Assembly (NCBI GenBank): GCA_048938895.1
Contig: JBHLLU010000010.1
Location: 34,001 to 98,000 of the forward strand
Source of the DNA: Promethearchaeota archaeon
GTDB taxonomy: Archaea > Asgardarchaeota > Lokiarchaeia > Sigyniarchaeales > SOKP01
DNA: 64,000 bases
Reading direction: 5' to 3'
Shown: positions 33,307 to 52,319 of the stretch, piece after piece
Numbering within the stretch: position 1 is the stretch's first letter
Layout: every line of letters begins with the position of its first letter
Program-made: the position numbers and the translations under genes
The notes under the pieces: generated by a model
Databases searched by the model: none
Seen by the model: only the letters and a program-made list of their open reading frames with translations
Told to the model about the DNA's origin: nothing

Positions 33307-35217
33307 TTATTTAAGAAGTACAGTCTCCAAATTTGTTGGTGATTTTGTTTGCTTTCTAAGTTTTTTGTGGATCATTGTTGATAAACTAATACATTTCGTT
33401 GCTTCTCCATGGTTTACAATAATAGATTTAGGTCTTGGTTGAATTCGTCTTAAAAACTGAGAGATTTGGCTTCTTGATGAATGTCCTGAAAAACCTTCAA
33501 GAGTAAAAACTTTTAGATTAATTTTTACTAGTTGAGTACGACCTTTAGCATCAACATATGTAAACTCACGAAATCCTTTTTGCAATCTTGAACCTAATGT
33601 TCCGTTAACCTGATATGACACAAAAATGAGTGCATTTTTAGCATCATTCGCTAGTTCTCGTAAATATTGTACTGAAGGTCCACCTATAAGCATTCCACTA
33701 GTTGCTAAAATAATACAAGGTCCTCCTTTAATAATGTCTAACCGTTCTTCTTGAGCAGAAACTGTTTCGAAATAATCACTTAAAAAAGGATTTTTTCCTT
33801 GGTGCAATATCTTTTCTCTTAAATCACTACTTAAATAGTCCGGATTAGCTGTATGTATCGCTGTAGCTTCACTAATTAATCCATCTATAAAAATGGGAAC
33901 TTTATCTATAAATCCTTTTGAAATATATTCCTCTAGAACTATTAATAGTTCTTGAGCTCGTCCCACAGCTAGTACGGGGACTAGAACTTTTCCCCCTCTT
34001 TTGAGTGTAGAATTTAAAATCTGTTTAAGTTCTTTTTCAGATTCTTGCCTGCTAGGAATTCGATCCTGAGGCCCACCATAAGTTGATTCTATTAATAGAC
34101 TTTCGACTCGAGGAAACTTTACGGCTGCTTTTTCTAATAACCGTGTTTTTTGAAATTTAAAGTCTCCAGTGTACACAAAATTGTAATCTCCTTTCCCGAA
34201 ATGTAAGTGAATCATTGATGATCCTAAAATATGTCCAGAATTATGAAGTGTTAATTTAATATCGGGTGCAATATCAGTTACTTTACCCCAAGAAAGGGGA
34301 ATCGTATGAAGAACGGTTTGTTTTACATCTCTTTTTGAATAGGGTAAAGGAGTCCCTTCTTTTTCACAGATCTGAATGAAATCCAGTTGTAGCATTGTTG
34401 CTAAGTTTCTTGTAGGTAAGGTACAATAAACAGGACCACGATAACCATATTTATAGAGGAATGGTACAAGTCCACAATGATCTAGATGTGCGTGTGAAAT
34501 TATTACAGCATCGAGATCTCTTAAAGAGAATTCTGGAACATCAAAAAAAGGGAATTTATCATTAGGATTTCCAACGTTTAATCCTACATCCAATAGTACA
34601 CTACTATCTCTTGTTTGCATTAAAATACAGGATCTACCAACTTCACGAAAACCTCCTAATGCTGTTAATCTTATATTCAAATCCTTAAATAATGGTGGTC
34701 TATGAATTCTTTTACCAATATTTAGGAGAATATCTTTCTGAGTTTGCCTTTCTTTTTTTAACATACCTCTTATTAATTGAATGGTTCTTGATGTTAGTGG
34801 GGGTGTTCTTATAGTTTTAGGTTGCCAAAAAGTGTTTGATCTAATTTCCTTTAAATTAATTCCTTTTTTACCAATTACAAGTCCAGGCTTTCCAGATTCA
34901 ATAATAACTTCTCCTCTGGTGTGATCGAAGGAAATATCTGAAATTTCTGCATCATTATTTACTAAATTTCTAATATATTCTTCAGTTTCCGCAGGATCCT
35001 TACGTTTATCTACATTCCATCGAAAAACAACACGTTTTCTCATAGTTTTGGCTAAATCTTTTAAAATTGTTGAACTTTCAATAGCATCCACATCCGAATT
35101 TTCTGAATAAACAGCTATTTCTGGTCCCTCAAATTCGATTTTATTGACTTTTATTTCAGGTGGTAGGTTTTGGATTATTTCATTTTTTATTCTTACTAGC
35201 TCTCCTTCATAACTCAT
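33307..35217 (-). CDS. fttA: aCPSF1/FttA beta-CASP ribonuclease (transcription termination factor)
   Basis: N-terminal KH domains (KPGLVIGK), LGGFREVGRSC, SHAHLDH, GHILGS, ESTYG, FSGH, VNHGE. Confidence 0.95.
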   Translation of the reverse strand: MSYEGELVRIKNEIIQNLPPEIKVNKIEFEGPEIAVYSENSDVDAIESSTILKDLAKTMRKRVVFRWNVDKRKDPAETEEYIRNLVNNDAEISDISFDHTRGEVIIESGKPGLVIGKKGINLKEIRSNTFWQPKTIRTPPLTSRTIQLIRGMLKKERQTQKDILLNIGKRIHRPPLFKDLNIRLTALGGFREVGRSCILMQTRDSSVLLDVGLNVGNPNDKFPFFDVPEFSLRDLDAVIISHAHLDHCGLVPFLYKYGYRGPVYCTLPTRNLATMLQLDFIQICEKEGTPLPYSKRDVKQTVLHTIPLSWGKVTDIAPDIKLTLHNSGHILGSSMIHLHFGKGDYNFVYTGDFKFQKTRLLEKAAVKFPRVESLLIESTYGGPQDRIPSRQESEKELKQILNSTLKRGGKVLVPVLAVGRAQELLIVLEEYISKGFIDKVPIFIDGLISEATAIHTANPDYLSSDLREKILHQGKNPFLSDYFETVSAQEERLDIIKGGPCIILATSGMLIGGPSVQYLRELANDAKNALIFVSYQVNGTLGSRLQKGFREFTYVDAKGRTQLVKINLKVFTLEGFSGHSSRSQISQFLRRIQPRPKSIIVNHGEATKCISLSTMIHKKLRKQTKSPTNLETVLLK

Positions 35218-35628
35218 AATATATCATCATTTTGACTAGTTGTTATTAATACTATAATTCTGTATACCGAGTTTAGAAATTTAATTTATTATTCATATAG
35301 TTTGTGTCTTCGGTAATCAACTCAATATGTTGAAATATTTATTAATAGCACTCGAAATTTTATTTATATATATAATCTAATATTTGATAAACACTATTTT
35401 GAATAAATAGAATATCTTTCTCTTACAATAAAATTCATTAATGAAGAGAATTATTTTTAGAATGAAATACTTCTAAATTTCTATGATAGATATAATTTAA
35501 TCAAATAAAAACATTTTGATTATTAAAATAAAAACGATTCGGTTATTCAAAACTCTTTAACTGATATCTACACAGTTTTTTGAAGGAAATTAGATAAATT
35601 TTTTTAAAGATAGTAAATAGAGTCATTT

Positions 35629-36261
35629 ATGAGTAAAATTAAAATTGGGGCTATTGCTTCTGGATCTGGATCTAATTTTGAAAGCATTGTTCAATCTTGT
35701 GAAGATGGCATTCTAAAAGAAAAAGCTTCAGTCGAAGTCTTAATTTGTAATAAAGCAGGAGTATTATGTATAGAACGAGCAATAAAGCATAAAATTCCAT
35801 ATATTTTGATTGAATCTGATAAACATAAAGGTACAAGAGAAGAGTTTGACCAAAAAATGATTGAAGTTCTTGACCAGTATGAATGTGAATTAATTACTTT
35901 AGTAGGATATATGCGTTTTGTCAGTGAACTATTCATAAATCACTTTAAGGGGAATGTAATGAACATACATCCTGCTCTTCTACCGAGTTTTAAGGGAATG
36001 CATGCCCATGAGGATGCTATAGCCTATGGTGTTAAGGTATCAGGTGTTACAGTTCATTTTGTTGATGTTCATGAAGATCATGGACCAATTATCATCCAGA
36101 AAGCAGTTCCTGTCTATGATACCGATAATAAAGATACTTTAGGCTCAAGAATCCTAAAATGGGAACATAAGGCTTTTCCAAAAGCAATTGAACTATTCTG
36201 TGATAGACGTTTACATGTTGAAGGCCGGATTGTAAAAATAGATGGAGAAGTTAAATTATAA
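35629..36261 (+). CDS. purN: phosphoribosylglycinamide formyltransferase
   Basis: SGSGSNF, LVGYMR, NIHPALLPSF, GVTVHFVD, GPIIIQ. Confidence 0.95.
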   Translation: MSKIKIGAIASGSGSNFESIVQSCEDGILKEKASVEVLICNKAGVLCIERAIKHKIPYILIESDKHKGTREEFDQKMIEVLDQYECELITLVGYMRFVSELFINHFKGNVMNIHPALLPSFKGMHAHEDAIAYGVKVSGVTVHFVDVHEDHGPIIIQKAVPVYDTDNKDTLGSRILKWEHKAFPKAIELFCDRRLHVEGRIVKIDGEVKL

Positions 36262-36480
36262 AATTTACTTTATAATTAAGGGAAATGATTTTAATGCGCT
36301 TTCTGACCCAACGGATTAATATAGTTCTTATACTATTTTTAAAATGACGAAGATCTTGAGTAGCGAGAAATCATTTCCCACCTTTTACTAAATTAACTCT
36401 ATTTATTTACAAACACTAAAGTTTTAATCCAAATAACAATAATTCCTAAATAATTATATAGAAATCGGATATTTTTAAGA

Positions 36481-38670
36481 ATGCCACGTAGAAAAGAAAT
36501 CACGGAAATACTAAATCTGATGGAAAAAACTCAAAATATAAGAAATATCGGATTTGTTGGACATATCGACCATGGTAAAACCACACTCTCTGATTCTCTT
36601 TTAAGTGAAGCTGGATTTTTATCACCAGAATTGGCAGGCGAAGCCCGAGCATTAGACTACTTAGAAGAAGAGCAACAACGTGGCATAACTATGAAATCAG
36701 CAAATATTTCACTATACTATGAAAAATCACTCGAAGATAAAGAGCCCTTCCTTATAAATTTAGTAGATACACCGGGTCACTTAGATTTTAGCGGTAAGGT
36801 AACTCGCGCTTTACGATTGGTTGATGGGGTTGTAGTGGTAGTTGATGCTGTAGAAGAAATAATAACACAATCAGAGACTGTAATCAAACAAGCCCTACAA
36901 GAAGGAGTTAAACCAATTCTTTTTATTAACAAGATCGATCGTTTAATAAGGGAATTAAAACTTTCAGATGAAGAAATTAAGAAAAAGTATATTCGAATTA
37001 TAAAATCCTTCAATACTCTTTTGGATAGATATGCAGATCACCCATTTAACAAAAAATGGAAGGTATCACCTTTAGCGGGTAATGTTGCATTTGGATCAGC
37101 CCTTCATAAATGGGGTTTTACTCATAATATTCTTGAACAGAGTACTATAAAATTTAAGGATATTAGAGAGCGATATAAAAAGGAGACTTATACTAAAGAT
37201 AGTTATGCAAACTTATCTAAGTATTTACCTATTCATAAGGCTATTCTTGAGATGGTTGTAAATCACTTACCAAATCCTATTGATGCTCAAAAATACAGAA
37301 TTGGAAAAATTTGGGATGGTGATATAAATTCTAACTTAGGAAAAGCAATGATTAATTGTGATAGTGAAGGTCCACTAATTATTTGTTTAAGCAAAGTTCA
37401 AGCGGATAAGCACGGTCTTATTTCTACTGGAAGGATTTTTTCTGGAAGTTGTAGCAAAAAGAGCAAGATTTTTCTTTTAAATGAAAACAATTTTGAAACT
37501 ATTCAAAGAGTCGCCATTTTCATGGGACAGAGAAGGGAACAAGTTGATAAAATCCCTGTAGGTAATATCGTTGCTATCGAAGACTTAAAAGGCGTAAGAA
37601 GTGGTGAAACTATTGTGGATAGTAATAATTTCAATAATATGGTCCCATTCGAAAGTGTCAAATATATAACAACACCTGTAGTAACAGTCTCGATTGAACC
37701 GGAATATCTTAGGGATCTAGATCTGATGAAAAAATTAATTGAAGATCTTTTAGTTGAAGATCCAAATCTAAAATTTGAAATAAATGAGGAAACAGGAGAA
37801 TTTTTGTTAAGTGGAATGGGTCCGTTACATTTAGAAGTAACTGCTAACGAAATAAATAAGAGAGGAGTCAAAGTTTCTATATCCGACCCGAGAGCTGTTT
37901 TTAAAGAATCTTGTCGATATAATTCCTCCTCCATTACAGTGCAATCTTCTGATTCTAAAAATAGATTGAAACTTAGAATTGAAAGACTAGACGATAAAAC
38001 AGTCAATTTTTTTCAAAATACAGATTATAGAAATATAAAACCCTTTGAGACGTTAAAAGAAGTATTAAACGAATATACAGATTTAACTCCTTATGAGATA
38101 GAGAATTTCTGGATTTGTGATGATGATCAAAATATAATCATCTATGAAGGAAGTTGGGACTTAGGGAAAGAGTATAAAGAAGAAATGATTGAAATTTTTG
38201 AGAAAATCCATTTAAATGGGCCATTATGCGGAGAAAAGCTTACAGAAATTAAAATTATTATTGAAGAATTGGAATTAGAAAATCTCTCGCAGGAAAATGT
38301 TTTTACTGAATTATCTACGTTATTTTACAATGCGATAAAAAAGGGATTACTACAAGGAGAGCTCATCTTATTGGAGCCTATTTATCATACAATCATACAA
38401 CTACCTCCCGATCATATTAAAAATGTACTATCATTATTATCAAAATATTCTGCAAAGATAAAGAGTATAGATCAAGAAAAAGAATACCAAGCAGTGATAG
38501 AAATCTTATTATCAGTTCGTAATTCGTTAAAATTTGCAGATGATATACGAAGTACTACTTCAGGGAAAGCGTTTTGGCAGAATGAATTTTATGCATTTAT
38601 GGAAGTTCCAGAGCATGAATCAAAAAAGTTAATTGAAGATTTAAAATTTCTTAAAGGAATCTCATGGTAA
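36481..38670 (+). CDS. elongation factor 2 family GTPase, divergent paralog without the diphthamide loop
   Basis: GHIDHGKTT, RGITMK, DTPGH, NKID, GMGPLHLE, GPLCGE; no HEDxxHRG in domain IV. Confidence 0.85.
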   Translation: MPRRKEITEILNLMEKTQNIRNIGFVGHIDHGKTTLSDSLLSEAGFLSPELAGEARALDYLEEEQQRGITMKSANISLYYEKSLEDKEPFLINLVDTPGHLDFSGKVTRALRLVDGVVVVVDAVEEIITQSETVIKQALQEGVKPILFINKIDRLIRELKLSDEEIKKKYIRIIKSFNTLLDRYADHPFNKKWKVSPLAGNVAFGSALHKWGFTHNILEQSTIKFKDIRERYKKETYTKDSYANLSKYLPIHKAILEMVVNHLPNPIDAQKYRIGKIWDGDINSNLGKAMINCDSEGPLIICLSKVQADKHGLISTGRIFSGSCSKKSKIFLLNENNFETIQRVAIFMGQRREQVDKIPVGNIVAIEDLKGVRSGETIVDSNNFNNMVPFESVKYITTPVVTVSIEPEYLRDLDLMKKLIEDLLVEDPNLKFEINEETGEFLLSGMGPLHLEVTANEINKRGVKVSISDPRAVFKESCRYNSSSITVQSSDSKNRLKLRIERLDDKTVNFFQNTDYRNIKPFETLKEVLNEYTDLTPYEIENFWICDDDQNIIIYEGSWDLGKEYKEEMIEIFEKIHLNGPLCGEKLTEIKIIIEELELENLSQENVFTELSTLFYNAIKKGLLQGELILLEPIYHTIIQLPPDHIKNVLSLLSKYSAKIKSIDQEKEYQAVIEILLSVRNSLKFADDIRSTTSGKAFWQNEFYAFMEVPEHESKKLIEDLKFLKGISW

Positions 38671-38717: not shown

Positions 38718-40025
38718 TTAATATTTTTTACTAAATTTTATGATTTCGTCTTGAATCTGGTAATTAGGAAGAACCAAGTTAGCAAAGCCTTTTTCCGCTG
38801 CAAATTTTGGCATCGCATATAGAATTGATGTTTCTTCAGATTCGGCAATCGTCTTACCCCCCAATTTTTGGATCGCACCTAATCCCTCAACACCATCTGA
38901 GCCCATCCCTGTCAACAATATGCCCATCGCTCTATTCCTATAAATTTTGGCAGCAGAAAAAAATAATATATCTATTGACGGCATGCAGTAGTTTATAGGG
39001 GCACTTTTATAAATTTTTATACATGGATTATTATTTTTAGTTGTGATTTCAATGTGGTTATCTCCAGGAGCAATATATACTGTTCCATTTCGAATATATT
39101 CACCATCAGATGCAACTTTTATATCTAATTCACATTCTAAATTTAAATTATCAACAAATGCTTCTGTAAAGTGTGCAGATAAATGCTGAACTATTAAAAT
39201 TGGTGAGGGGAATTTGCTTGGTAGTGCTTTTAATATGGAAGTTATGGTACGAGGCCCACCTACGCTAGCCCCAATCACTATAAGATTTGAAGTTAAGGTA
39301 ACTCCCTTAATGGGTGTCAAATCTGGTGTAAAAGAAGATTTTTTAACTGTTTTGAATTGATATTCTGGTTTTTTTTGTTCCTCTAATGGTTTGAATCTCG
39401 GCGGTTTTATTTCCTGATTTTTCAATTTTCTGAGATTACTTGAAATTTTGTTCTCTCTATTCTTAGTTTTGCCAATATCGATAATTTGTTGGTCTTCCTC
39501 TGATTCTTGGATAGGTGTGAGTGTGTTTAAATATCGCCCAAATTTAAAGATCTCATCAATAATTTCTTGTCTGAGAGATATAGGTTTTTTATATTCTTCA
39601 TTTTCTTTTTTAAATATTCTTTTTATTTGGGATTGAGATGCTAGAAGAACTTTCGAGAGTAATTCTTCCCGGAATTTTGGTAAATCTTTAGCACCTATAC
39701 CTCCTGGTTTTATTATATAATCAAATGCCCCCATTAAAAGTGCCTGGATAGAAGAATCAAGGTTTTTGGGACTTATGGCGGAAAGTATAACAGTAGGTGT
39801 TGGACGTTCTTCCATGATCATTTTAAAAGCGTCTAACCCATTCATTTTTGGCATCAGTAAATCTAAAACCAAGACATCTGGGCTAAATTTCTTAACAAAT
39901 TTAACAGCTTCCTCTCCATCCTTTGCATATTCTAAGATGTTTATCAAATCGTGACCTTTAAGAATTTGAGCAATATTTTTTCTTAAATACGCAGAATCAT
40001 CAGCAATTATAACATCAATTGACAG
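38718..40025 (-). CDS. cheB: chemotaxis response regulator methylesterase CheB (copy 1; probable CTG start at 40025)
   Basis: Receiver domain (IIADDSAY lies upstream of the track start; LDLLMP; DYIIKP) plus esterase GASVGGP, VQH, LTGMGSDG. Confidence 0.92.
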   Translation of the reverse strand: MSIDVIIADDSAYLRKNIAQILKGHDLINILEYAKDGEEAVKFVKKFSPDVLVLDLLMPKMNGLDAFKMIMEERPTPTVILSAISPKNLDSSIQALLMGAFDYIIKPGGIGAKDLPKFREELLSKVLLASQSQIKRIFKKENEEYKKPISLRQEIIDEIFKFGRYLNTLTPIQESEEDQQIIDIGKTKNRENKISSNLRKLKNQEIKPPRFKPLEEQKKPEYQFKTVKKSSFTPDLTPIKGVTLTSNLIVIGASVGGPRTITSILKALPSKFPSPILIVQHLSAHFTEAFVDNLNLECELDIKVASDGEYIRNGTVYIAPGDNHIEITTKNNNPCIKIYKSAPINYCMPSIDILFFSAAKIYRNRAMGILLTGMGSDGVEGLGAIQKLGGKTIAESEETSILYAMPKFAAEKGFANLVLPNYQIQDEIIKFSKKY

Positions 40026-40095: not shown

Positions 40096-41055
40096 CTAAA
40101 ACAAGGTTGAAATTAAATATGTAAATAATTCATCTATTCCCTCACCTGTATATGCGGATGTTTCAAAAAAAGGAAAATGATATGCTTTTGCAAGCTTTTG
40201 AGCTCGTAACTTAAGTTCCTGACGATCCTTGGTTAAATCGATTTTATTCCCAACTAATATGATTGGAATGGATAGATCTTTGATAAAATGGCGAGATTCT
40301 TCGATCCAATTAGATATATTATTGAGAGTTTCTTGTTTGGAATAATCAAACAAAATAAGGATTGCATTTGAATAAGGATAGTAATACTTGCGAATTTTAG
40401 CAAATCCTCTTAATCCACCTAGGTCAAGGAGATATAAAAATAAACTATGCTCTTTAGATATTTGTAAAGTCTTATCTTTAATTGATATTCCTATAGTTGG
40501 TCTATAACTTTCTTGGAAATTTCCTCTACAATACATTTCAACCAAAGAACTCTTTCCAACTGATTCTGAACCAACGATTACTATTTTGTTAACATTATTG
40601 TTAGCATATTGAGCATTATGGTTAGGATTCAAAATTAGATCTCCAGTATTACTTAATTTTGGTAAATTAATTGAAGTTTCTTTATTATTGAGCAGTAATG
40701 AAATTTTTTCTGCCACAATATAAGCAAAAGGGATAAATTGATTTATATTAGAATATTGATCACCAACCAAAACAAAGATTGCAGGAGTTACTCTGCTTAA
40801 TTCTATATAAAATAATTGAAATTCATTAGTCGCAAGGGTACCACTTCCAAATGAAGTTTCTGTATACTTCTTTATTCGGTTTATGGTCTGTTCGAGAATA
40901 CCCATAATAGCACCAATTAATTCTTCATCAAACCCACCGATTGATTTTTTAGCAATAATTAGCCCATCTAAATCAACAACTAAAGCAGCTAAAAGATCTT
41001 GTGTTTCGCCTAACAGATTGGCAAGCAGTTCTTCCAATATTGTTATCTTTGACAT
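40096..41055 (-). CDS. roadblock domain plus Rab/Ras-like small GTPase fusion
   Basis: N-terminal LLAALVVDLDGLIIA...DEELIGA; G1 GSESVGKSS, G2 PTIG, G3 DLGG, G4 NKID, G5 ETSA. Confidence 0.9.
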   Translation of the reverse strand: MSKITILEELLANLLGETQDLLAALVVDLDGLIIAKKSIGGFDEELIGAIMGILEQTINRIKKYTETSFGSGTLATNEFQLFYIELSRVTPAIFVLVGDQYSNINQFIPFAYIVAEKISLLLNNKETSINLPKLSNTGDLILNPNHNAQYANNNVNKIVIVGSESVGKSSLVEMYCRGNFQESYRPTIGISIKDKTLQISKEHSLFLYLLDLGGLRGFAKIRKYYYPYSNAILILFDYSKQETLNNISNWIEESRHFIKDLSIPIILVGNKIDLTKDRQELKLRAQKLAKAYHFPFFETSAYTGEGIDELFTYLISTLF

Positions 41056-41061
41056 TTGTTT

Positions 41062-41736
41062 TTATAGGTTTATATCATATTTTAAATTTAGAGTTTTAAA
41101 TAAGGTTTTTAGAATATTGATACAAGGGATAGAGCACATAATGCAATTCAAATTAATTTCTGGTAGTGTAATTTTTGTTTGTATTATTATTAGAAAGTCT
41201 GAGGATCTAGAATATTTAGCAATTATTCCATTTAACATCGCTTGTAAAGTGTCAAGTGCTACAGTTGGGACATTAGGAATTAATTGAGTTGATAATAAAT
41301 CAGCTAACGCAGTAGTATAATGTCCAGTTAGAATATTGCCTATTTCTTTAATGATACTAAGAGAAATATCGTCTAGATCTTCAACTTTTACTATTTCTTC
41401 ATTAGGAATTTTTTGGTTAAAATTTAAAAGATTGATTAAATTAATGAGTGATTCTTTAGTGAATATTTGAATTATTGATAATTTTAAGTTGTAAGAAACC
41501 TCAGAATAAACCCCAAATACCTCAACTTGTGGTGTATCAAACACTTCAGGGACTTTCCAAAAGGGTATAATCTCCGCTGAAGTAAGAGATACTTCTATTT
41601 CACTATTAAGTAATTTTGAAAGAGCTGTGATTGCATGACCAGAACCAATATTTCCTAGTTCTTTTAGTGTATCTAATTGTTCTCTGGTTAATTTATATTC
41701 ATTTAGACGTACTAAATTTTTATTATTTTTATTCAT
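41062..41736 (-). CDS. cheC: CheC-family CheY-P phosphatase
   Basis: LKELGNIGSGHAITALS and IKEIGNILTGHY. Confidence 0.9.
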   Translation of the reverse strand: MNKNNKNLVRLNEYKLTREQLDTLKELGNIGSGHAITALSKLLNSEIEVSLTSAEIIPFWKVPEVFDTPQVEVFGVYSEVSYNLKLSIIQIFTKESLINLINLLNFNQKIPNEEIVKVEDLDDISLSIIKEIGNILTGHYTTALADLLSTQLIPNVPTVALDTLQAMLNGIIAKYSRSSDFLIIIQTKITLPEINLNCIMCSIPCINILKTLFKTLNLKYDINL

Positions 41737-41763: not shown

Positions 41764-42309
41764 CTATGAATAAACAAATTTACTAAAATCCTCTAATCCC
41801 GTTGATTTAAGATACAATGTAAGATCTTTAGAATCAAAGATTACGATTCTCCCTTTAGATCCCCCTGTATCTTCCTTTATAATTTCAATTTTCAATTTTT
41901 TCAATTCTTCTTTAATATATCCAATATTATCTATTCCTACTAAGTTATTATCTAAATCAAAAATTTTGGAGCCTCCTACAATTATTGCTTTTATTTGCTC
42001 ATATTTGGCACCACAATCTATTAATTCTTGCATTAAGAGCCTGGCAGATAAATTGGCATACTTATGAGGATAATTTATTACTTTTTTTGTAGCTTTGGGG
42101 AGTAGAATATGAGACATACCACAAATCTTATTTTTATAATCACAAAGAATTAATGCTATACAAGAACCTAACCCGTAAATAGAGAGTTTTGGGGAAACCT
42201 TACTTAACTTATACTTACCATTAATAATAGCATAATGACCTATTGGTAAATTAATTACCCCATCTTTACCAACCTCCTCAATTTTTCCTTTTTGGCACCT
42301 ATAGGTCAA
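41764..42309 (-). CDS. cheD: chemoreceptor glutamine deamidase CheD
   Basis: GLGSCIA, GMSHILLP, KYAN, GGSKIF, EDTGGSKGR. Confidence 0.92.
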   Translation of the reverse strand: MTYRCQKGKIEEVGKDGVINLPIGHYAIINGKYKLSKVSPKLSIYGLGSCIALILCDYKNKICGMSHILLPKATKKVINYPHKYANLSARLLMQELIDCGAKYEQIKAIIVGGSKIFDLDNNLVGIDNIGYIKEELKKLKIEIIKEDTGGSKGRIVIFDSKDLTLYLKSTGLEDFSKFVYS

Positions 42310-42326
42310 AATATATATACCTCTCT

Positions 42327-43472
42327 TTAATTATTAATATCGTTTGTAAATTTTTGAGCAAAATCAATCATTTCCCGACCAATTAAATAATTAGGAAGCA
42401 CAATTTTAGCTGCTCCTCTCTTAATAGCTGCTTTTGGCATACCATATACAATACAAGTTTCTTCGGATTCAACTATCGTTTTACCACCTGAATTTTTGAT
42501 TGCATCTAATCCTGCAGCTCCATCATCCCCCAATCCTGTCAAAAGTATACCCATTGCAGATTGTTTATAAATTTCTGCTACAGAAGAAAATAAAACATCA
42601 ACCGAGGGCATGCAAAAATTAACAGGTTTTCCTTTAAATATCTTAATAGATGGAGAATTATTTCTTAACACAACTTTCATGTGATTTCCACCAGGACTTA
42701 GGTATACCTTTCCAGATTCGATTTTTTCACCATCTACTGGGATTTTGATCTCAATATCACACACTTCATTCAATGATTTAGCAAACTGTTTCATAAAAAA
42801 GGCATCTAAATGTTGCACCATTAATATTGGGCAGGGGAAATTTCTTGGTATTGATCTTAAGATCGATTTTAGTGTTCTAGGTCCTCCGGTGCTGGTACCA
42901 ATTACTATAACATTCGATTTCAACTTTTTATTGTCTGGAAGAGCCGCTTTTAAGGATTTAATTGCAATTGAGTTGACAGATTCTTCAAAAATGTTCTTTT
43001 TTTCTGCCAAATTCGAGTTTAATTGAAAATCAATTGATTTTTTGATTAGATTATTTCGTTTCTCATAAGTTTTTTTTATTTTTCCAGCATATAAAATGCT
43101 TGAAACCAACTTCTTTTTAAATTTAGGAAATTCCTCTTCCCATAAACCACTAGGTTTTATGATAAAATCAAATGCACCAAGAAGTAAAGCTTGAACAGAA
43201 TTATCTAACGCTTCAAGTTGGAGTCCAGTAAAAACTATTGTTGGTATGGGATAGTGTTCTGAAAGGAACTTGAGAACAGACAAGCCATCAATTTCAGGCA
43301 TTATAAGATCTAATACAATTACATCAGGGTTATGATCACCGATCTTTTGGATTGCTTCTCTACCATTTCTGGCGATATCTATAACTTCAATTTCTTCATT
43401 AGATGATACCATTTCAGCAATTACCTTTCTTTGATATGCTGAATCCTCGGCAAGTAATACTCTTATTGGCAT
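42327..43472 (-). CDS. cheB: chemotaxis response regulator methylesterase CheB (copy 2)
   Basis: VLLAEDSAY, LDLIMP, GTSTGGP, VQH, PSVD, LTGLGDDG, YGMP. Confidence 0.93.
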   Translation of the reverse strand: MPIRVLLAEDSAYQRKVIAEMVSSNEEIEVIDIARNGREAIQKIGDHNPDVIVLDLIMPEIDGLSVLKFLSEHYPIPTIVFTGLQLEALDNSVQALLLGAFDFIIKPSGLWEEEFPKFKKKLVSSILYAGKIKKTYEKRNNLIKKSIDFQLNSNLAEKKNIFEESVNSIAIKSLKAALPDNKKLKSNVIVIGTSTGGPRTLKSILRSIPRNFPCPILMVQHLDAFFMKQFAKSLNEVCDIEIKIPVDGEKIESGKVYLSPGGNHMKVVLRNNSPSIKIFKGKPVNFCMPSVDVLFSSVAEIYKQSAMGILLTGLGDDGAAGLDAIKNSGGKTIVESEETCIVYGMPKAAIKRGAAKIVLPNYLIGREMIDFAQKFTNDINN

Positions 43473-43607: not shown

Positions 43608-44156
43608 CTATCTTTCTAATATCTTTTCAATTTCGTTAAATCTTTGTTGTATATGTTCAATTGAATATTTGATGTGACTTTGCATTTCCTTTATTTCCAT
43701 TAGTATCTTTTTTATTCGAGATTTATCAGAATTTGATATTATCGTACTATCTTGAATTGAAGCTCTTGTATTAGATAGTGGTATTCTTGAATCGAATTCT
43801 AGTAAAGGTTCATTTTTGATTGAACTGTTTCTAGATTCTCCAGGATAAGTTAGATCAATCCTATTTTCTTTAATTTCTCGGTATATAACTCTGAAGTCAG
43901 ATGGTTCTAAACCTTGTTTTATTACTTCATATTTGAAATTATAGAATTTTTTTTTTGTTTTGAGTTTCCCAGCCCAATTAGCCGCCATATACCTATGAAA
44001 TAAACGAGAGTGACTGCCAGCCCAGATCCATATTAGTTTAATTTTCTTATCTATAATTAAGTATACTCCAGAAGGATCAAAAATCTTCTCTGGTTTTAAT
44101 TTTATGGTCTCTCCATCAACTTTATATATATAATCATAATAAGTTGTTTTTAGCAT
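43608..44156 (-). CDS. single gelsolin-repeat protein with C-terminal coiled coil
   Basis: FDPSGVYLIID...IWIWAGSHS...YMAANWAGKL...VIKQGLEPSDF matches the gelsolin repeat pattern; heptad tail. Confidence 0.75.
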   Translation of the reverse strand: MLKTTYYDYIYKVDGETIKLKPEKIFDPSGVYLIIDKKIKLIWIWAGSHSRLFHRYMAANWAGKLKTKKKFYNFKYEVIKQGLEPSDFRVIYREIKENRIDLTYPGESRNSSIKNEPLLEFDSRIPLSNTRASIQDSTIISNSDKSRIKKILMEIKEMQSHIKYSIEHIQQRFNEIEKILER

Positions 44157-44258: not shown

Positions 44259-46241
44259 TTAAGAGTAGAAATTTAACAGCGCGTCTAAGAGATTATGTAG
44301 AGTATCTAGACTTGGTATAAATAGAAATGTACCAACAATTTCAATGTCTTTAATAATGACACTTGTGGTTATTACTAAAGATAATTTCTTTAAAAGTCCA
44401 ATCTCTTCCTTTAAAATACTAAATAATCCGGTAGGCTTATCAACACTCATGTCAGGTGGTTCAGTCATTAAACGTATCCCTAATAAATCTCCTATAGCAC
44501 TAACATAATGACTTCCCAAAATATGTCCCAGTTCTGAAATCGCACTTTTATATAACTCTGGAAAATCGTCTGCTTTATTAATACTTTTTCTTAAATCGAT
44601 ATTCTTTTTATCAGGATCATCAACTATTATTGAAGTTATGTTAATTGCGTCTTTGATATTAAACATGGTAAGAACTGTAGCTCTAGTTTTTCCAATAATA
44701 TTACTCCAGGCAACTAGAAGCTTTTCATCTTTTGTACTTATTTTTTTAGCATAATCATCTAATTCTACCATCTCTACTGAAGGAATATTAATGTCAACTC
44801 TTTTATTAATCATTTGTGCTAATGCATTAGCTGCATTACCAGCACCTATATTTCCGACTTCTTGAAGTGCGTCCCTCTGGAGTTCTGTGAGTTTTAGTTT
44901 AGTAATATCTAAAATTTCTTGTTCTTGACTCTCTTCTAAACCACCAATTGAGAATTCTTGATCAATACCGAGTTTAGTAAAAAATATTTTTAATGTCTTA
45001 ATATCTGGTATAAAGAAGAAAATCCCTTTTAATTTCAAATCCGAGACTTTCACTGAAGTTTTAATTATTATTATTACATCGGCAATTGATTTGAGTTCTT
45101 GAGAAAGAAATTCACCTAACTCACCAGCATTACTCATTGCAAACTCAGGTATATCAATCATCAATTTCGTCTCTAATAAATCTGCCAAGGCAGATGCATA
45201 ATGACCTGCCATGATATTACCCATTTCAGTAATTGTTGAAACTGCAAAGTCATCAAGATCTTCTTTTGATGTTACCTTATTAGGATCTAATTTTGATTTT
45301 TTTCCTGCTAAGGATGCGATTAATTTCATTAAAGGTTTCATTTCGAAAATATTTAAGATTGTAGATTGAGAAGGCTCATCAATATGACAAAAAATACCGC
45401 ATACTCTCTCTTTAGGTCCCCCGAACTGATCTGCTAATTGATCAAAAGAAATTATTCCTACATCTGTTAGAGTGACATCAATTTTCTTCTTAATTAACCT
45501 AGATAGGGCTGTAACTGCATTTCCTGTTCCAATATTTCCCATTTCTTTGAGGATATCCTTTTGATCAGCTGATAAAATTAAATTATCCGTATCAGGTATT
45601 TTTGATAAATGTGATTTTTTCACATGTGTTTGAGGGAGAATAACAGTAGACTCTGTATGACTTATTTCTTTTTTCTTAGGCTCACTCAGTGTTTTAGGCA
45701 CAACTTTAGGTTTTTGAGGGATTATTGAAATTTTTTCAATCTTTTCTTCTTTTTTCCTTTCTGTAATTTTTGTATATGGTTGGATCAATGTGTTTAAATC
45801 TAATAGAATAAGTACTTCATCTTGAAAAACTCCTGTCAGTTTTATAAATTTAAAATCTATATTTGTTTTTATAATAGCCCCTTGTTGTTTAAAAATTGAA
45901 ATTGGAAATTCTCTTACACCGATTACAGAATCTACTAATAAAGCAATACGAAGATCACCCCATTCCAAAAGTAATATCCTTGAATGATTATTTAAACCAT
46001 AATCTATACTATCTGAACAAATATTATGTCTTAAAGAAATAATAGAATAAATTTCTCCCCTTATATTTATAACTCCAACAATAGATTTATCTGATAATGG
46101 TACGGGGATAATTGTATCTCCAGGCACATATATCTCTTTCACCTTTTCAACTTCAATGAGATATTTCTCACTTTTTATTTCTATTATAACAGCAGTTAAA
46201 TTTTCTCCATATTCCAGATTTTCATATTCACTTTCTATCAT
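44259..46241 (-). CDS. CheW-CheC-CheC fusion protein
   Basis: N-terminal CheW (VKEI, VPLS, GVINIRGEI, ALLVDSV), K/E/P-rich linker, then four CheC motifs (EMGNI, EMGNI, EVGNI, ELGHI). Confidence 0.88.
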   Translation of the reverse strand: MIESEYENLEYGENLTAVIIEIKSEKYLIEVEKVKEIYVPGDTIIPVPLSDKSIVGVINIRGEIYSIISLRHNICSDSIDYGLNNHSRILLLEWGDLRIALLVDSVIGVREFPISIFKQQGAIIKTNIDFKFIKLTGVFQDEVLILLDLNTLIQPYTKITERKKEEKIEKISIIPQKPKVVPKTLSEPKKKEISHTESTVILPQTHVKKSHLSKIPDTDNLILSADQKDILKEMGNIGTGNAVTALSRLIKKKIDVTLTDVGIISFDQLADQFGGPKERVCGIFCHIDEPSQSTILNIFEMKPLMKLIASLAGKKSKLDPNKVTSKEDLDDFAVSTITEMGNIMAGHYASALADLLETKLMIDIPEFAMSNAGELGEFLSQELKSIADVIIIIKTSVKVSDLKLKGIFFFIPDIKTLKIFFTKLGIDQEFSIGGLEESQEQEILDITKLKLTELQRDALQEVGNIGAGNAANALAQMINKRVDINIPSVEMVELDDYAKKISTKDEKLLVAWSNIIGKTRATVLTMFNIKDAINITSIIVDDPDKKNIDLRKSINKADDFPELYKSAISELGHILGSHYVSAIGDLLGIRLMTEPPDMSVDKPTGLFSILKEEIGLLKKLSLVITTSVIIKDIEIVGTFLFIPSLDTLHNLLDALLNFYS

Positions 46242-46272: not shown

Positions 46273-47124
46273 TTATTTCATCATAATTCCTTTCCAAACT
46301 AATTCTATCTCAGAATTATCTTCAGAAGCTTCAGTAAAAAAATCTGATTGTTTAAAAATTGAAATTTGACCCCCATTTGAATTTTGATATACATAATTTA
46401 ATAAGTCCTCAGAGCTTGTAAAGTTAAATCCTGCTAATTTTAATTCTGAATTATTGATAATTAAAAGATCTTCTCTGTTAAAAGAAAGATTTTCTTCAAT
46501 CCATTCAATCCACAACTCTGGAGTTATTTCTATATTATCAATCTTGATAGCTTCATCAATAGGTATATTTCTGAATGATTTACCTGCCGGAAAAATAATT
46601 CTATTTGGATTTAAATTTTCCTTCTTCACGTATTCGCTAATTTCTTTTAGTGAGTTTTTAAAACTATTCAATTCTAAAATATCATGACATGAAACAATTA
46701 TTTTTTCTTTTTCCTCTGTATCAAGAATAAAATCAATTGAATTTGCAAATTGGTTATTAATACTGATAGTTTTAATATTAAGCCCTAAATGATATTTAAG
46801 GTATTGATAAAATCGCCATTTAACTGCTAATTTATCGTTTATTTCCCTGCTGATAAAGATTTGAAAGAGTATTTTTCTTTGAGGCTCATCCAATTTTGAT
46901 AAATCTGCATATTTCTTACTGTCATTTCCTATTATATCAAATTTCATTGCAGATTTAGAGCTCGTTGCCTTAGATCCTTTATCTTTTTTATTAGATATAG
47001 TCTCTAAATCTCTTAAAAAATGATCGAATTCACTAACTGTGAATTTTGGCAGAATTTGTTCAATCAGATAGGTTATATATTCTTTTGATTTGTCTTGTAT
47101 TGTTTCATAAAACTGTAAATTCAT
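46273..47124 (-). CDS. hypothetical protein in che cluster, possible degenerate PD-(D/E)xK fold
   Basis: SIDFILD...IIVSCH resembles ID...ECK without the catalytic residues; GGAGG upstream. Confidence 0.6.
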   Translation of the reverse strand: MNLQFYETIQDKSKEYITYLIEQILPKFTVSEFDHFLRDLETISNKKDKGSKATSSKSAMKFDIIGNDSKKYADLSKLDEPQRKILFQIFISREINDKLAVKWRFYQYLKYHLGLNIKTISINNQFANSIDFILDTEEKEKIIVSCHDILELNSFKNSLKEISEYVKKENLNPNRIIFPAGKSFRNIPIDEAIKIDNIEITPELWIEWIEENLSFNREDLLIINNSELKLAGFNFTSSEDLLNYVYQNSNGGQISIFKQSDFFTEASEDNSEIELVWKGIMMK

Positions 47125-47173: not shown

Positions 47174-49177
47174 TTATCCAATAAAAAACGATTCTAATTC
47201 TGAAAATTTAATCTCTTTTCCGGTTATATTTTTTAAATAGTACATTATCTCTCTTTCTTGATATGGTTGTAGAGTTTCAAGATTGAAAGATATTTTCCGT
47301 TCTCCTGATTTATCAGGTTTACTAAGTTTATATTCTAAATTTGAAGAAACTAATTCAAATGAATCTGGAAATGCATCAGTAATATTCACATCAGTTAATT
47401 TTATGTTAGAACCATTTGTTACAGTTATGTAAATTGCAAATTCATTAATATCCCTCCCAGGGAAAATCTCCTTTCCCGTCATTAACTTTCGGCGTTTATG
47501 AGTAATTTTAAGGGAAGATTTGTCAATATTATCAACTGCATCATTTATAACATAGTAATCTTTAGAATCTGCGTCAAAGAATTTCATATAATAAGATTTA
47601 ATCTCTATTGGAAAGTTATATTCTTTTTCATAATCTGGTGTTACTGCTGTTAAAGGGTATTTTACTTCTAAAAAGTCATCTACTCCAATCAAAACACTCC
47701 CATGATTAGTTTCTAAATTAAGATTCAATTCTAAAATATGATCATGAGCGGGATCATCATCATTGGGACTAATTTTTATTGAGATATCTTCAAGTTTTAT
47801 TTCACCCGAAGAATTTAAAAATTGAAAATATGAAATTTCCTTTGGGGGTAAAAAATCTGCAGGTATTCTTTCTTGAGTAATAATACCTTTTATTGGTAGA
47901 GTACCTTGATTCTTTACTATAAATTCTGTTTTTACTTTTGCTTCTTCAAATGACTTTATTTCACGTTCTTCAATATTCTTCTTGATCAAGGCATTAACTA
48001 CTTTAAATAAGTTATCTTCTACTAGCACAGTAATCATAGAATTTTTCTCAACTTTGTAATCCACTGAATATTCAACCTTTCTAGAGAAAGTTGGTTCTCT
48101 TTCATCTTGATAGTCAATATGTTCAGTCGTATAACTCTCATTGGGGACTATTTTTATCTCTCTTTCACTCAAATCTAATTCTAGCAACTTTTCTTTTTTG
48201 GATTTATCCATAATAAGAATTGAATTTAATTTCATCTTAAAATCACTATGATTTTCGAATACTAGAGAACAGTCCCAGTGATTAGGGTTATGTTCTTTTT
48301 CTGTTTTTCTAATTGCATGCATAGCGTGTGAATAAGCAGAGAAATGTTCAATTTCTACTTCTGATATGGTTTGATTCTTTAAATTGAATGAAATCTCTAT
48401 TCTCCCTGTTCTAATATCTTCTTTCCTTTTCGGAAATATATTTGCATGAAGAATTAATTCTACATGCTCCCCAGGATTTAGGTTTTTGATAGGGATCTCG
48501 ATATAATTATTAGTAATTTCAATATCTTTACTCAACCCTCCCTCAAATTCCAAATCATAGAAGTTATTTAAAAAATATTTCTTTAATTTCACATTTTCCA
48601 AAATTGTGGAAGAAACATTTTCAATATATATAGAAAATTTGACTTTATTTTCTCTTCCTAAAAGTAACATATAATTTTTTTGAGATGATTTATTTGATTC
48701 ATCAAAACTATCAAGTTTCACATAATCGATATCTTTACTCAAATTTTCTATATCTTCATTTACGGATATTATATCAGGTAAGATTTCTGAATTTACGATT
48801 TCATATTTTAGAATTTTATTTGAATTAGGTTCAAAGATTCCTAAATGCATTCCTTTTTCAGAATCTTGTTTATCAAATTGAGTACCTGTAAATTTTATAA
48901 AAGTATCCCAGATTCTATCCTTTAGCGAGTTATTAAACACAACTATGTTCCCATAACCAGCTAATGTTTTCCTGGTCTTATTATTTTGATAATGATACTC
49001 TAAAAATTCTTCATTAAGTATTAGTATCTCTGACATGGAACCAAGTGAGCTTGAATCTATTTTCTTCTCTCTCTCTTTTATTTGTACCATTTTCCCTACT
49101 TCTCTTATTGGCATACCAAGAAAACTTGAGCTATTACTTAACTTTAATTTGTCTTGGTTAACCTTCTTAAAACCCAT
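47174..49177 (-). CDS. cytoplasmic protein with about 5 tandem Ig-like beta-sandwich domains
   Basis: Repeated strand-N motifs (IVVFNN, IYIENV, LVFENH, FIVKNQG, ITVTNGS...TDAFP); no signal peptide or TM. Confidence 0.65.
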   Translation of the reverse strand: MGFKKVNQDKLKLSNSSSFLGMPIREVGKMVQIKEREKKIDSSSLGSMSEILILNEEFLEYHYQNNKTRKTLAGYGNIVVFNNSLKDRIWDTFIKFTGTQFDKQDSEKGMHLGIFEPNSNKILKYEIVNSEILPDIISVNEDIENLSKDIDYVKLDSFDESNKSSQKNYMLLLGRENKVKFSIYIENVSSTILENVKLKKYFLNNFYDLEFEGGLSKDIEITNNYIEIPIKNLNPGEHVELILHANIFPKRKEDIRTGRIEISFNLKNQTISEVEIEHFSAYSHAMHAIRKTEKEHNPNHWDCSLVFENHSDFKMKLNSILIMDKSKKEKLLELDLSEREIKIVPNESYTTEHIDYQDEREPTFSRKVEYSVDYKVEKNSMITVLVEDNLFKVVNALIKKNIEEREIKSFEEAKVKTEFIVKNQGTLPIKGIITQERIPADFLPPKEISYFQFLNSSGEIKLEDISIKISPNDDDPAHDHILELNLNLETNHGSVLIGVDDFLEVKYPLTAVTPDYEKEYNFPIEIKSYYMKFFDADSKDYYVINDAVDNIDKSSLKITHKRRKLMTGKEIFPGRDINEFAIYITVTNGSNIKLTDVNITDAFPDSFELVSSNLEYKLSKPDKSGERKISFNLETLQPYQEREIMYYLKNITGKEIKFSELESFFIG

Positions 49178-51353: not shown

Positions 51354-51749
51354 TTATTTTTTATTAGCTGTCTTATTCTTTAGAATACGGTCCATTACCT
51401 CAAGAATTTGTTCAGACTTGAAGGGTTTCTGAATGAAGTCCTTTGCACCTTTTTTAGCTGCTTCCAAGACTAAGGCTTCTTGTCCTAATGCGGACACAAC
51501 GACGATTAATGCACTAGGATTAATTTTTAAGATCTCTTCTGTTGCTTCAATACCACCTTTCTCGGGCATCACTAAATCCATGGTAACCAAATCAGGATTT
51601 AACTTTTTATATAAGGATATAGCTTCAACTCCATTAGCTGCCTCGCCAACTACCTCGATTTGTTCCATCTTGCTAATAATGGCTTTTAGCATATTCCTTG
51701 TAAAAGCTGCATCGTCTACTATCATAACCCTTTTTTTATCGTTTGTCAT
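51354..51749 (-). CDS. cheY: chemotaxis response regulator CheY
   Basis: VMIVDDAAFTR, TMDLVMP, VSALGQ, FIQKPF (Bacillus/archaeal type). Confidence 0.93.
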   Translation of the reverse strand: MTNDKKRVMIVDDAAFTRNMLKAIISKMEQIEVVGEAANGVEAISLYKKLNPDLVTMDLVMPEKGGIEATEEILKINPSALIVVVSALGQEALVLEAAKKGAKDFIQKPFKSEQILEVMDRILKNKTANKK

Positions 51750-51776: not shown

Positions 51777-52319
51777 TTAATTTTTTGTCAATGATGTTTT
51801 ATCCTGTTGGATTTGAAATTCTTCAATTTCAGTCAGAATCTTTCCTAACTCAAGCATAATCCTTGGTCTTTCATTGAAATTTATGACACCTTTAATATAT
51901 TTCATAGCTACACTGGTTTGAAAAATAGGACTTAATGCTTTAATTTCATTGCTATCAATGTGATCTATATTTATAATGCGATCGACGTAAAACCCAACAA
52001 GGTTTTTATCCACTTTCAAAATAATTATATATTTTCTTGTGTTACTATTATTTTCTTCTTCCATAGAGGACTTTTTTGAGCGATACAACATATATTCATT
52101 TAAATTTAATTTTTTCTTCAAATTAACAATGTGTATGATTTCTCCTCTATAGTTATAAATTCCATCTATGTATTCCAAGCTTTTCGGCAATTTTCTTATT
52201 TGTCCCGCTTGTATTATTTCTTTAACATCAAGAAGGTCAATAACAAATTGCTCCCATCCAATTTGGAAAATAAGGATGGATACTTGATTTAACTTTTTAT
52301 ATTCTTGGTCTTGTATCAT
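51777..52319 (-). CDS. cheW: chemotaxis coupling protein CheW
   Basis: DVKEII, LPKSLEYIDGIYNYRGEII, GFYVDRI, IKGVI. Confidence 0.9.
   Translation of the reverse strand: MIQDQEYKKLNQVSILIFQIGWEQFVIDLLDVKEIIQAGQIRKLPKSLEYIDGIYNYRGEIIHIVNLKKKLNLNEYMLYRSKKSSMEEENNSNTRKYIIILKVDKNLVGFYVDRIINIDHIDSNEIKALSPIFQTSVAMKYIKGVINFNERPRIMLELGKILTEIEEFQIQQDKTSLTKN

Follow-up and report, generated by a model that had tools for sequence, protein, structure and literature searches.

The short form of a roadblock-fused, Rab-like GTPase lineage lacking the switch II glutamine is an accessory member of che gene clusters in Lokiarchaeia

The stretch of DNA analyzed here, called the window throughout, comprises 64,000 nucleotides from a Promethearchaeota archaeon of the class Lokiarchaeia (contig JBHLLU010000010.1, positions 34,001 to 98,000) and carries a cluster of che genes on its minus strand. 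Between cheC and the second cheB gene of this cluster lies a gene for a small GTPase of 319 residues, predicted to consist of an N-terminal roadblock-type domain and a Rab/Ras-like G domain. It starts 6 nt after the cheC stop codon (41062-41064), and its 3′ end is 70 nt from the true start of the second cheB gene at position 40025. An earlier note on this DNA, made from the sequence of the window, had described a gene starting 6 bp after cheC and preceding cheB, and both statements hold. The gene and its elements are as follows.

40096-41055, minus strand: roadblock-Rab-like GTPase gene, 319 residues, ATG at 41055-41053, stop codon at 40096-40098
40690-41055, minus strand: putative N-terminal roadblock-type domain, residues 1-122 (AlphaFold2 [AF2] topology and Pfam)
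40597-40689, minus strand: linker, residues 123-153, the lowest-confidence part of the AF2 model (predicted local distance difference test score [pLDDT] below 50 at residues 147-151)
40099-40596, minus strand: Rab/Ras-like G domain, residues 154-319 (Pfam Ras, Foldseek, VIA-align and PDB profile)
40549-40572, minus strand: G1/P-loop GSESVGKS, G162-S169; G162, G167 and K168 invariant in 137 aligned sequences
40495-40497, minus strand: G2 Thr187 (switch I, YRPTIG); P186 and T187 nearly invariant in the same alignment
40408-40425, minus strand: G3/switch II DLGGL-R, D211-R216; Leu215 in place of the catalytic Gln
40237-40248, minus strand: G4 NKID, N270-D273, guanine specificity; K271 and D273 invariant, N270 nearly so
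40150-40158, minus strand: G5 SAY, S300-Y302; S300 invariant, A301 nearly so

All the motifs of the Ras superfamily are present in the protein, i.e., G1 (GxxxxGK[ST]), the G2 Thr, G3 (DxxG), G4 ([NT]KxD) and G5 (SA), and Pfam recognizes a Ras domain (PF00071) at residues 157 to 317 (E = 4e-38; cut-off, 21.6 bits). The departure from the superfamily is at position 215, where the DxxGQ consensus has the catalytic Gln and this protein has Leu. The codon at 40411-40413 reads taa on the plus strand, which corresponds to TTA on the coding strand. When the protein is aligned by profile to solved Rabs, L215 falls on the catalytic Gln of the Thorarchaeota Rab 7ezb and of Rab2A. The C terminus (...FTYLISTLF) is devoid of Cys and thus of the prenylation motif of eukaryotic Rabs. 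Translation of the coding strand therefore agrees with the motif description given in the earlier note: a DLGGL sequence with a TTA codon and an adjacent Arg, intact G1, G2 and G4 motifs, SAY as G5, and no C-terminal Cys. The position of Ras Gly12 is occupied by E164, and Glu is found there in 19 of 27 genomic orthologs. As a non-Gly residue at this position is also common in Gln-bearing paralogs, Rabs and Arfs, we give this feature little weight.

We determined how position 215 is occupied in the best 120 homologs from a collection of 5.8 billion proteins. These share 49 to 100% identity with the window protein and come from Lokiarchaeia/Promethearchaeota-type metagenome-assembled genomes, including Lokiarchaeum GC14_75 at 71%. 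Gln is found in none of them: the residue is Leu in 86, Ile in 20, Ser in 7, Val in 2, Ala in 2, and Thr, Phe or Lys in 1 each. At the next position, 116 of the 120 have Lys or Arg. The other motifs are kept, with GK[ST] in G1 and P/A-T-[ILV]-G in G2 (PT[ILV]G in 117 of 120, ATIG in 3). In the 119 aligned homolog rows, [TIV]S[ASV] is maintained, as is NKxD, with Thr or Ser replacing the Asn in 2. Gln is likewise absent from position 215 of the 27 genomic orthologs (Leu in 19, Ile in 4, and Ser, Ala, Val and Lys in 1 each), among which Leu is encoded by six different codons.

The codon itself was compared with a contig of 1341 nt that a different sample of this study (run X2) had yielded. This contig covers 40294-41100 with one difference, at 40625, and is identical to the window across the Leu215 codon. 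X2 carries this check, since X3 and X4 leave part of 40146-40432 uncovered and X5, whose 43 differences were not itemized, was not used for it. The dN/dS ratios against 24 orthologs range from 0.10 to 0.29, indicating that the gene is maintained by purifying selection; saturation of dS affects most pairs, no estimate was obtained for two, and the nearest pair has a dS of 0.79 and an omega of 0.12. None of the 19 orthologs from the genus has a broken reading frame, although a contig end truncates one of them. The earlier note had itself allowed that an alignment of DLGGL(R) among orthologs might reveal Gln, and the Leu prove to be a strain-specific change or a sequencing error. The homologs and the X2 contig dispel that doubt: Leu215 is neither.

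The Gln-less proteins form a group of their own. When 1.84 billion cluster representatives (50% identity) were searched exhaustively, the top ~25 representatives (E < 1e-46) all carry D-x-[GSA]-[GS]-[LIVKTFS]-[KRHD], and Gln-bearing DLAGQ roadblock-GTPases begin only at an E value of 1e-43. Those ~25 include forms of 478 to 489 residues with an extra N-terminal longin-like domain, which is weakly recognized by Pfam Longin (in 2 of 6 such proteins scanned), and 433-residue forms with a C-terminal extension. A maximum-likelihood tree was computed from 81 rows of roadblock-GTPases; only every sixth of the close homologs was retained, and the 325 columns included the one with the trait. A branch with a support value of 100 in the Shimodaira-Hasegawa-like approximate likelihood ratio test (SH-aLRT) has 36 Gln-less rows on one side, and 43 Gln rows together with two isolated non-Gln rows (Glu and His) on the other. 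Among the roadblock-RasL GTPases of Asgard archaea (Lokiarchaeia type), the Gln-less proteins are one distinct, old clade, and the switch II Gln was lost once.

Within the genome of the window, 69 small-GTPase matches were found, nine of which are full-length roadblock fusions. In the eight of these that were aligned, Gln is absent only from the window protein and from a 44%-identical long paralog encoded on contig C114. The residues that set the Gln-less clade apart belong mostly to the hydrophobic core, plus G306 (versus Asn) and K220 (versus Arg). The only notable basic residue specific to the clade is Lys/Arg216, at a position that varies in the Gln-bearing paralogs; beyond it, the scan for clade-specific residues returned no conserved polar or catalytic candidate. 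The 433-residue Gln-less paralogs (L045 8772-10759, on contig C114 of G000, and L044 9334-11923) have a C-terminal extension of ~115 residues. The same extension is found in their neighbor, a Cys-rich protein of ~195 residues, and these loci do not contain che genes.

An AF2 model of the full-length protein, computed from the 137-sequence alignment, has a pLDDT of 90.1 and a predicted template modeling score (pTM) of 0.89. The N-terminal elements of this model (helix 3-17, strands 21-28 and 33-38, helix 44-63, strands 71-75, 79-85 and 92-99, and helix 104-122) follow the alpha-beta-beta-alpha-beta-beta-beta-alpha order of the Roadblock/LC7 fold. Pfam Robl_LC7 (PF03259) matches residues 9 to 51 of the whole protein (E = 0.004, 17.3 bits) and the N-terminal domain taken by itself (E = 0.0011, 19.1 bits), in both cases below the 23-bit cut-off. 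Among orthologous N-terminal domains, 26 of 33 match it at an E value of at most 0.01, the best at 4.7e-7. A profile of the domain run against PDB sequences returned only a designed repeat protein, a spurious match that sums weak repeats, and CvnB5 (E = 0.34). Our assignment of a putative roadblock domain is thus based on the Pfam matches of the orthologs and on the predicted topology.

In Foldseek searches, the best matches of the G domain were Rabs in the GTP form (Rab27, Rab3A-GppNHp and Rab8-GTP; template modeling [TM] score up to 0.90 by target). With VIA-align, the Ras/Rab fold was recovered with Rab3C (Z = 24.4; root mean square deviation, 1.8; 167 aligned residues), and lower Z scores were obtained for a Lokiarchaeota RagA-like GTPase (18.0), kappaB-Ras1 (9qu1_F; 17.8) and MglA (16.1). 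The nearest solved relative by sequence profile is the Thorarchaeota Rab 7ezb (E = 8e-51). The term “Rab-like” used in the earlier note thus suits the fold, but the missing prenylation motif sets the protein apart from Rabs in the strict sense.

The cluster that surrounds the gene is arranged along the minus strand in the following order.

52338-53159, minus strand: putative longin+roadblock protein, 273 residues, first gene of the cluster (AF2 and Foldseek)
51777-52319, minus strand: CheW (Pfam)
51354-51749, minus strand: CheY (Pfam)
49241-51325, minus strand: CheA (Pfam)
47174-49177, minus strand: DUF11-like protein, 667 residues, with Ig-type repeats (Pfam)
46273-47124, minus strand: 283-residue protein of an unnamed family (no Pfam family)
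44259-46241, minus strand: CheW-CheC-CheC fusion (Pfam)
43608-44156, minus strand: gelsolin-like protein, 182 residues (profile against PDB)
42327-43472, minus strand: first CheB (Pfam)
41764-42309, minus strand: CheD (Pfam)
41062-41736, minus strand: CheC (Pfam CheC, E = 1e-21)
40096-41055, minus strand: the roadblock-Rab-like GTPase
38718-40025 (listed as 38718-39947), minus strand: second CheB, CheB2 (Pfam CheB_methylest, E = 6e-57, and Response_reg)

We surveyed 54 genomes of the genus, this one included, for CheA and for the short form of the GTPase (~319 residues), defined by at least 61% identity. CheA was found in 25 of them. The short form is present in 19 genomes, all of them CheA-positive (19/25), and in 0 of the 29 CheA-negative ones. 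CheB2 lies within 200 nt downstream of it in 18 of the 19. Five contigs of genus relatives span several che genes (G002, G016, G022, G006 and G009), and all show the cluster order of the window; the G007 contig begins inside the GTPase gene and shows only the GTPase-CheB2 pair.

In a survey of 161 genomes of the class, 41 were found to have a member of the Gln-less clade. The short-form loci from other genera and families lie beside che genes in 15 of 15 cases, which represent at least 8 other genera and 3 families. The upstream neighbor in these loci varies, being CheC, CheB1, CheR or the gelsolin-like gene; the latter is directly upstream of the GTPase gene in four loci of another genus (L076, L079, L080 and L081). 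The downstream gene is that for CheB2 or, at three loci from a single genus, for a hybrid of PAS, kinase and receiver (REC) domains. The GTPase gene, which the earlier note had located inside the che operon of the window, is thus a conserved member of such clusters both within the genus and beyond it.

Two variants of the downstream region were seen. In G069, CheB2 is 2.1 kb away from the GTPase gene, and the spacer of ~2 kb (L085 7977-9971), which holds only two 91-residue frames, could be an insertion or a decayed gene. In the sister genus with the hybrid kinase (L080 10667-13842, L081 6403-9436 and L079 3187-5676), the GTPase gene is followed by a gene for a PAS-HisKA-HATPase-REC protein, and in two of these three loci a Gtr1/RagA-like GTPase comes next.

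Several other cluster members have features of interest for the interpretation. The gelsolin-like protein, with its conserved helical tail, was encountered in all che loci of sufficient length that we examined. Its profile, made from 16 orthologs, matched the Thorarchaeota gelsolin-like protein 7c2f in PDB (E = 3.1e-7), followed by 2DGel, villin and CapG. The 273-residue protein has no Pfam match, and its AF2 model (pLDDT, 81.1; pTM, 0.80) consists of two tandem beta-beta-alpha-beta-beta-beta-alpha modules of the longin/roadblock type. Foldseek hits of this model at E values of 1e-4 to 3e-3 include Fuzzy-Inturned/CPLANE, Mon1-Ccz1, TRAPP, LAMTOR and AP2 sigma, with PAS/LOV chains ranking equally high. 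It also resembles BLOC-3, which like Fuzzy-Inturned and Mon1-Ccz1 is made of multi-longin (tri-longin) subunits of guanine nucleotide exchange factors (GEF) for Rabs, at modest E values. Of 135 genomes of the taxonomic family, 99 encode members of this protein family, with paralogs also outside che clusters. We consider this protein a candidate GEF or GTPase-activating protein (GAP) platform, nothing more.

The 283-residue and DUF11-like proteins are constant members of the cluster, the latter with a length of ~1050 residues in two sister genera. For the former, Protein Atlas gave only sub-threshold leads of the Mrr/restriction-endonuclease-like type (0.81; TM, 0.36 to 0.44), and we name no family for it. 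Pfam searches of the family-less cluster proteins at E values up to 5 yielded nothing credible, and a 220-residue divergent neighbor had no match in PDB.

The genome has a size of 4.65 Mb and is rated 98.7% complete with 7.5% contamination. It has 8 matches to methyl-accepting chemotaxis proteins (MCP), and CheR is encoded outside the cluster of the window. Profiles for CheF and archaellin found no match in the genome, though the positive controls did. Matches to T2SSE-family (PilB/ArlI-type) ATPases with 62 and 28 bits (G000 C91:13104-13817 and C123:59410-59775) suggest that some type IV filament system may be present, and we rejected the claim that this genome has no pilus motor because of them.

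We propose that the protein is a GTP-binding switch with poor intrinsic hydrolysis that is built on a roadblock platform, serves as an accessory adaptor of the Che cluster and would probably need a partner in trans for any turn-off. We put the chances of this reading at about even. All nucleotide- and Mg-binding motifs are intact, and GTP binding would thus be expected. As no cis catalytic residue is in view, intrinsic hydrolysis would probably be very slow. Substitutions of Gln61 in Ras cripple both its intrinsic and its GAP-stimulated hydrolysis. Two elements used by other GTPases are missing: the P-loop Asn of the K+-dependent HAS-GTPases (in which a hydrophobic residue takes the place of the catalytic Gln) is replaced by Ser165, with Asn at this fourth position in only 3 of 120 homologs, and the position of the MglA-type Arg finger, next to the G2 Thr, is Pro186. 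The GTPase would remain GTP-bound for long periods and act as an adaptor on the roadblock platform, through which we infer that it dimerizes. Switching it off would depend on a partner acting in trans to contribute a catalytic residue, in the manner of RapGAP with Rap and TBC GAPs with Rabs. The same has been proposed for the Gln-less Rup1 GTPases (Wuichet and Sogaard-Andersen 2014, PMC4316618). The short form would thus be an accessory, dispensable part of the che cluster in genomes without a CheF or archaellin match, and might take part in Che signaling.

A number of observations weigh against this proposal. “Slow” is an expectation drawn from motifs, and HAS-GTPases, which have a hydrophobic residue at the Gln position, do hydrolyze GTP by other means (PMC2848588). 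Lys/Arg216, being nearly invariant, might contribute to catalysis or to the transition state. The tie between the GTPase and Che signaling is one of gene neighborhood. Six CheA-positive genomes of the genus have no short form, and in three of their operons that are contiguous (G024, G044 and G003) CheC leads directly into CheB2 with no GTPase between them, which indicates that the gene is dispensable and any role in Che signaling non-essential. No che genes lie near the long forms (433 residues, or 491 with longin) at any of the 3 loci examined, and these forms also occur in CheA-negative genomes (G052 and G063), showing that the Gln-less trait itself is not tied to chemotaxis. The genomes of one genus are kin, and our counts overstate their independence. 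The interpretation given in the earlier note is thus supported in part. Its description holds, whereas the mechanisms that it offered, a slow GTP-bound switch, an alternative catalytic residue or help from the fused roadblock, are hypothetical. Its suggestion that the GTPase gives the Che pathway a point of control has to be toned down to an accessory, non-obligatory role, three operons of the same genus doing without it.

The protein might instead be a normally cycling GTPase with a substitute for the Gln in cis, i.e., Lys/Arg216, the basic residue that precedes the G2 Thr by two positions, or the fused roadblock. Such an element would position the attacking water or stabilize the transition state and leave hydrolysis unimpaired. 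The contrast between a residue 216 that is basic in nearly all homologs and its variability in Gln-bearing paralogs would suit such a role, and HAS-GTPases are described as pairing the hydrophobic substitution with hydrolysis through cis elements (PMC2848588). Similarly, MglB-type roadblocks are GAPs that act by positioning residues (PMC4316618), and the pTM value of the full-length model suggests a fixed arrangement of the roadblock relative to the G domain. However, Gln is kept in 43 of the 45 outgroup rows of the same architecture, and the fusion alone is thus no substitute for it, which weakens the possibility raised in the earlier note. Gln-bearing paralogs, too, frequently have a Lys or Arg two residues ahead of the G2 Thr, the Arg finger of MglA directly adjoins the Thr where Pro186 is found here, and the Asn of the K+-dependent mechanism is absent. 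We consider catalysis in cis improbable.

It is similarly unlikely that the gene is a mere passenger, one of ~69 small-GTPase paralogs that was inherited within the che cluster and has a function unrelated to chemotaxis. The sheer number of paralogs is in line with this idea, as are the dispensability of the gene and its varying place, after cheC, cheB1 or the gelsolin-like gene, or at the head of a pair with cheB2. A passenger would nevertheless hardly be confined to CheA-positive genomes of the genus, nor stay beside che genes in every one of the 15 loci from other genera despite rearrangements, and the 6-nt gap to cheC suggests co-transcription.

Could the GTPase be the main output of the Che system, a switch controlled by CheY-P or CheB2 that passes signals on to the actin cytoskeleton or the machinery of the cell surface by way of the gelsolin-like and longin-roadblock proteins and replaces the CheF-archaellum route? 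A full che cluster and 8 MCP matches in a nearly complete genome with no CheF or archaellin match are in favor of this, and the genes for the two putative relay proteins are in the same cluster, the gelsolin-like gene directly before the GTPase gene in the four loci cited above. The downstream neighbor has a REC domain in most loci, mostly as CheB2 and in three as the PAS-kinase-REC hybrid, and the Frz system, which acts on MglA/MglB and RomR, is a precedent (PMC4316618). Yet an essential output would not be lost from 6 of 25 CheA-positive genomes of the genus, cleanly so from the three contiguous operons, and the T2SSE-family ATPase matches leave room for another filament motor. A complex prediction with three chains (CheB2 residues 1-180, CheY and the GTPase) gave an interface score (ipSAE) of 0.00 in both runs, made without controls and with a chain number unlike that of the calibration, and has no bearing on binding either way. 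This role as main output seems quite doubtful to us. The same holds for its boldest extension, a long shot in our estimate, that in archaellum-less Lokiarchaeia the bacterial-type Che phosphorelay is wired to a eukaryote-type module of the Gln-less Rab-like switch with its roadblock, the longin-roadblock protein as a regulator and the gelsolin-like protein as a regulator of actin, so that sensing steers actin or protrusions rather than a rotary motor. If true, this would be a prokaryotic forerunner of the eukaryotic chemotaxis that leads from G proteins to actin. Finally, the idea that the Leu stems from an error of sequencing, is peculiar to this strain or marks a decaying pseudogene has practically no probability left, being refuted by the homologs without Gln, the matching contig of an independent sample, the dN/dS ratios and the intact frames, with no point found in its favor.

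The architecture of the protein is known from Asgard archaea. Fusions of a roadblock domain with a GTPase (RB-GTPases) have been catalogued in MK-D1 among 74 GTPases (Tran et al. 2024, PMC10933270), and, in this and a second study, those of the RasL group have the same N-terminal roadblock and Rab/Ras-like G domain (PMC10933270; bioRxiv 10.1101/2024.02.28.582541). Like the window protein, they come from Lokiarchaeia-type genomes with dozens of small GTPases and lack a prenylation motif in these descriptions. In contrast with its sister RB-GTPase fusions, which have DLAGQ, the clade described here lacks the switch II Gln, and its short form belongs to che clusters. The preprint identifies no Asgard sequences that are specifically sister to eukaryotic Rabs (bioRxiv 10.1101/2024.02.28.582541).

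By its published description, the Rup1 family is also prokaryotic and Ras-like, with a Gln-less G3 and other G motifs that are eukaryote-like (PMC4316618). Rup1 genes too adjoin signaling genes of the two-component type, and Gln was proposed to be supplied in trans. Rup1 differs from the GTPase of the window in that it is bacterial and single-domain and has another set of neighbors (same source). As the tree places the Gln loss inside the Asgard roadblock-GTPases, it is probably independent of that in Rup1.

The MglA/MglB pair of Myxococcus xanthus, which is under the control of Frz, likewise combines a Ras-like GTPase and a roadblock with a Che-type pathway and response regulators (PMC4316618). 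However, MglA keeps the Gln (TVPGQ/GTPGQ) and has an Arg finger by the G2 Thr, whereas the protein of the window has DLGGL and Pro186 and is not an MglA. In addition, MglB is a separate protein and the roadblock is fused here, and the G domain is nearer to Rabs than to MglA by Z score (24.4 versus 16.1). The likeness to HAS-GTPases lies in the hydrophobic residue (Leu, Ile, Val, Phe or Ala) at the Gln position of 111 of 120 homologs, with the other G motifs intact. HAS-GTPases belong to other GTPase families, and those that have been characterized work with K+ together with a P-loop Asn and a K-loop (PMC2848588); the K+-dependent subclass (GxxNxGKS) was rejected for our protein because of Ser165. 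We also rejected Rag/Gtr membership, since the domain order is reversed (the roadblock of Rags is C-terminal) and the Gtr1_RagA match of 18.5 bits is below the 22-bit cut-off.

Among eukaryotic GTPases of the Ras family that are deficient in hydrolysis, kappaB-Ras/NKIRAS, Rnd and RhoH have natural changes at the positions of Ras Gly12 and Gln61, are mostly GTP-bound and are regulated outside the GTPase cycle. In contrast to the window protein, they have no roadblock fusion and no link with chemotaxis.

In the literature that we covered, from which subscription journals were left out, no Asgard small GTPase was linked to che genes and no Gln-less clade of roadblock-GTPases was described. The architecture of Asgard RB-GTPases is thus known, and the Gln-less clade and its che linkage appear to be new. 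Asgard archaea have dozens of eukaryote-like small GTPases, to which that literature assigns no cellular pathway. The Gln-less clade offers both a fixed genomic partner, a che cluster without matches to motor-adaptor genes, and a biochemical oddity. Should the link hold, two-component sensing would be joined to the toolkit of GTPases, longins, roadblocks and gelsolins that eukaryotes use for directed movement. Should it fail, the clade would still be a natural Gln-less Rab/Ras-like lineage, useful for finding out how such switches turn off. The proposed link between chemical sensing and eukaryote-style G-protein signaling, albeit unproven, is testable.

The gene downstream of the GTPase deserves a remark. 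CheB2 consists of a REC domain, a conserved extension of ~70 residues, a variable Lys/Glu-rich linker and the methylesterase. Its start codon at 40023-40025 is CTG in the window, and TTG, ATG or GTG is found there in 10 orthologs. The next canonical start, TTG at 39947, would cost the receiver its N-terminal strand and Asp-Asp pocket. Contigs of runs X2 to X5 have A instead of G at 40025, which makes the codon TTG, beside the G of the window, pointing to a strain-level polymorphism. On the far side of CheB2, the che cluster is flanked at 33307-38670 by an aCPSF1-like gene, purN and a gene for an EF-2-like GTPase paralog of 729 residues. This flanking set is repeated in relatives of the genus and in two other genera (L074 and L075).

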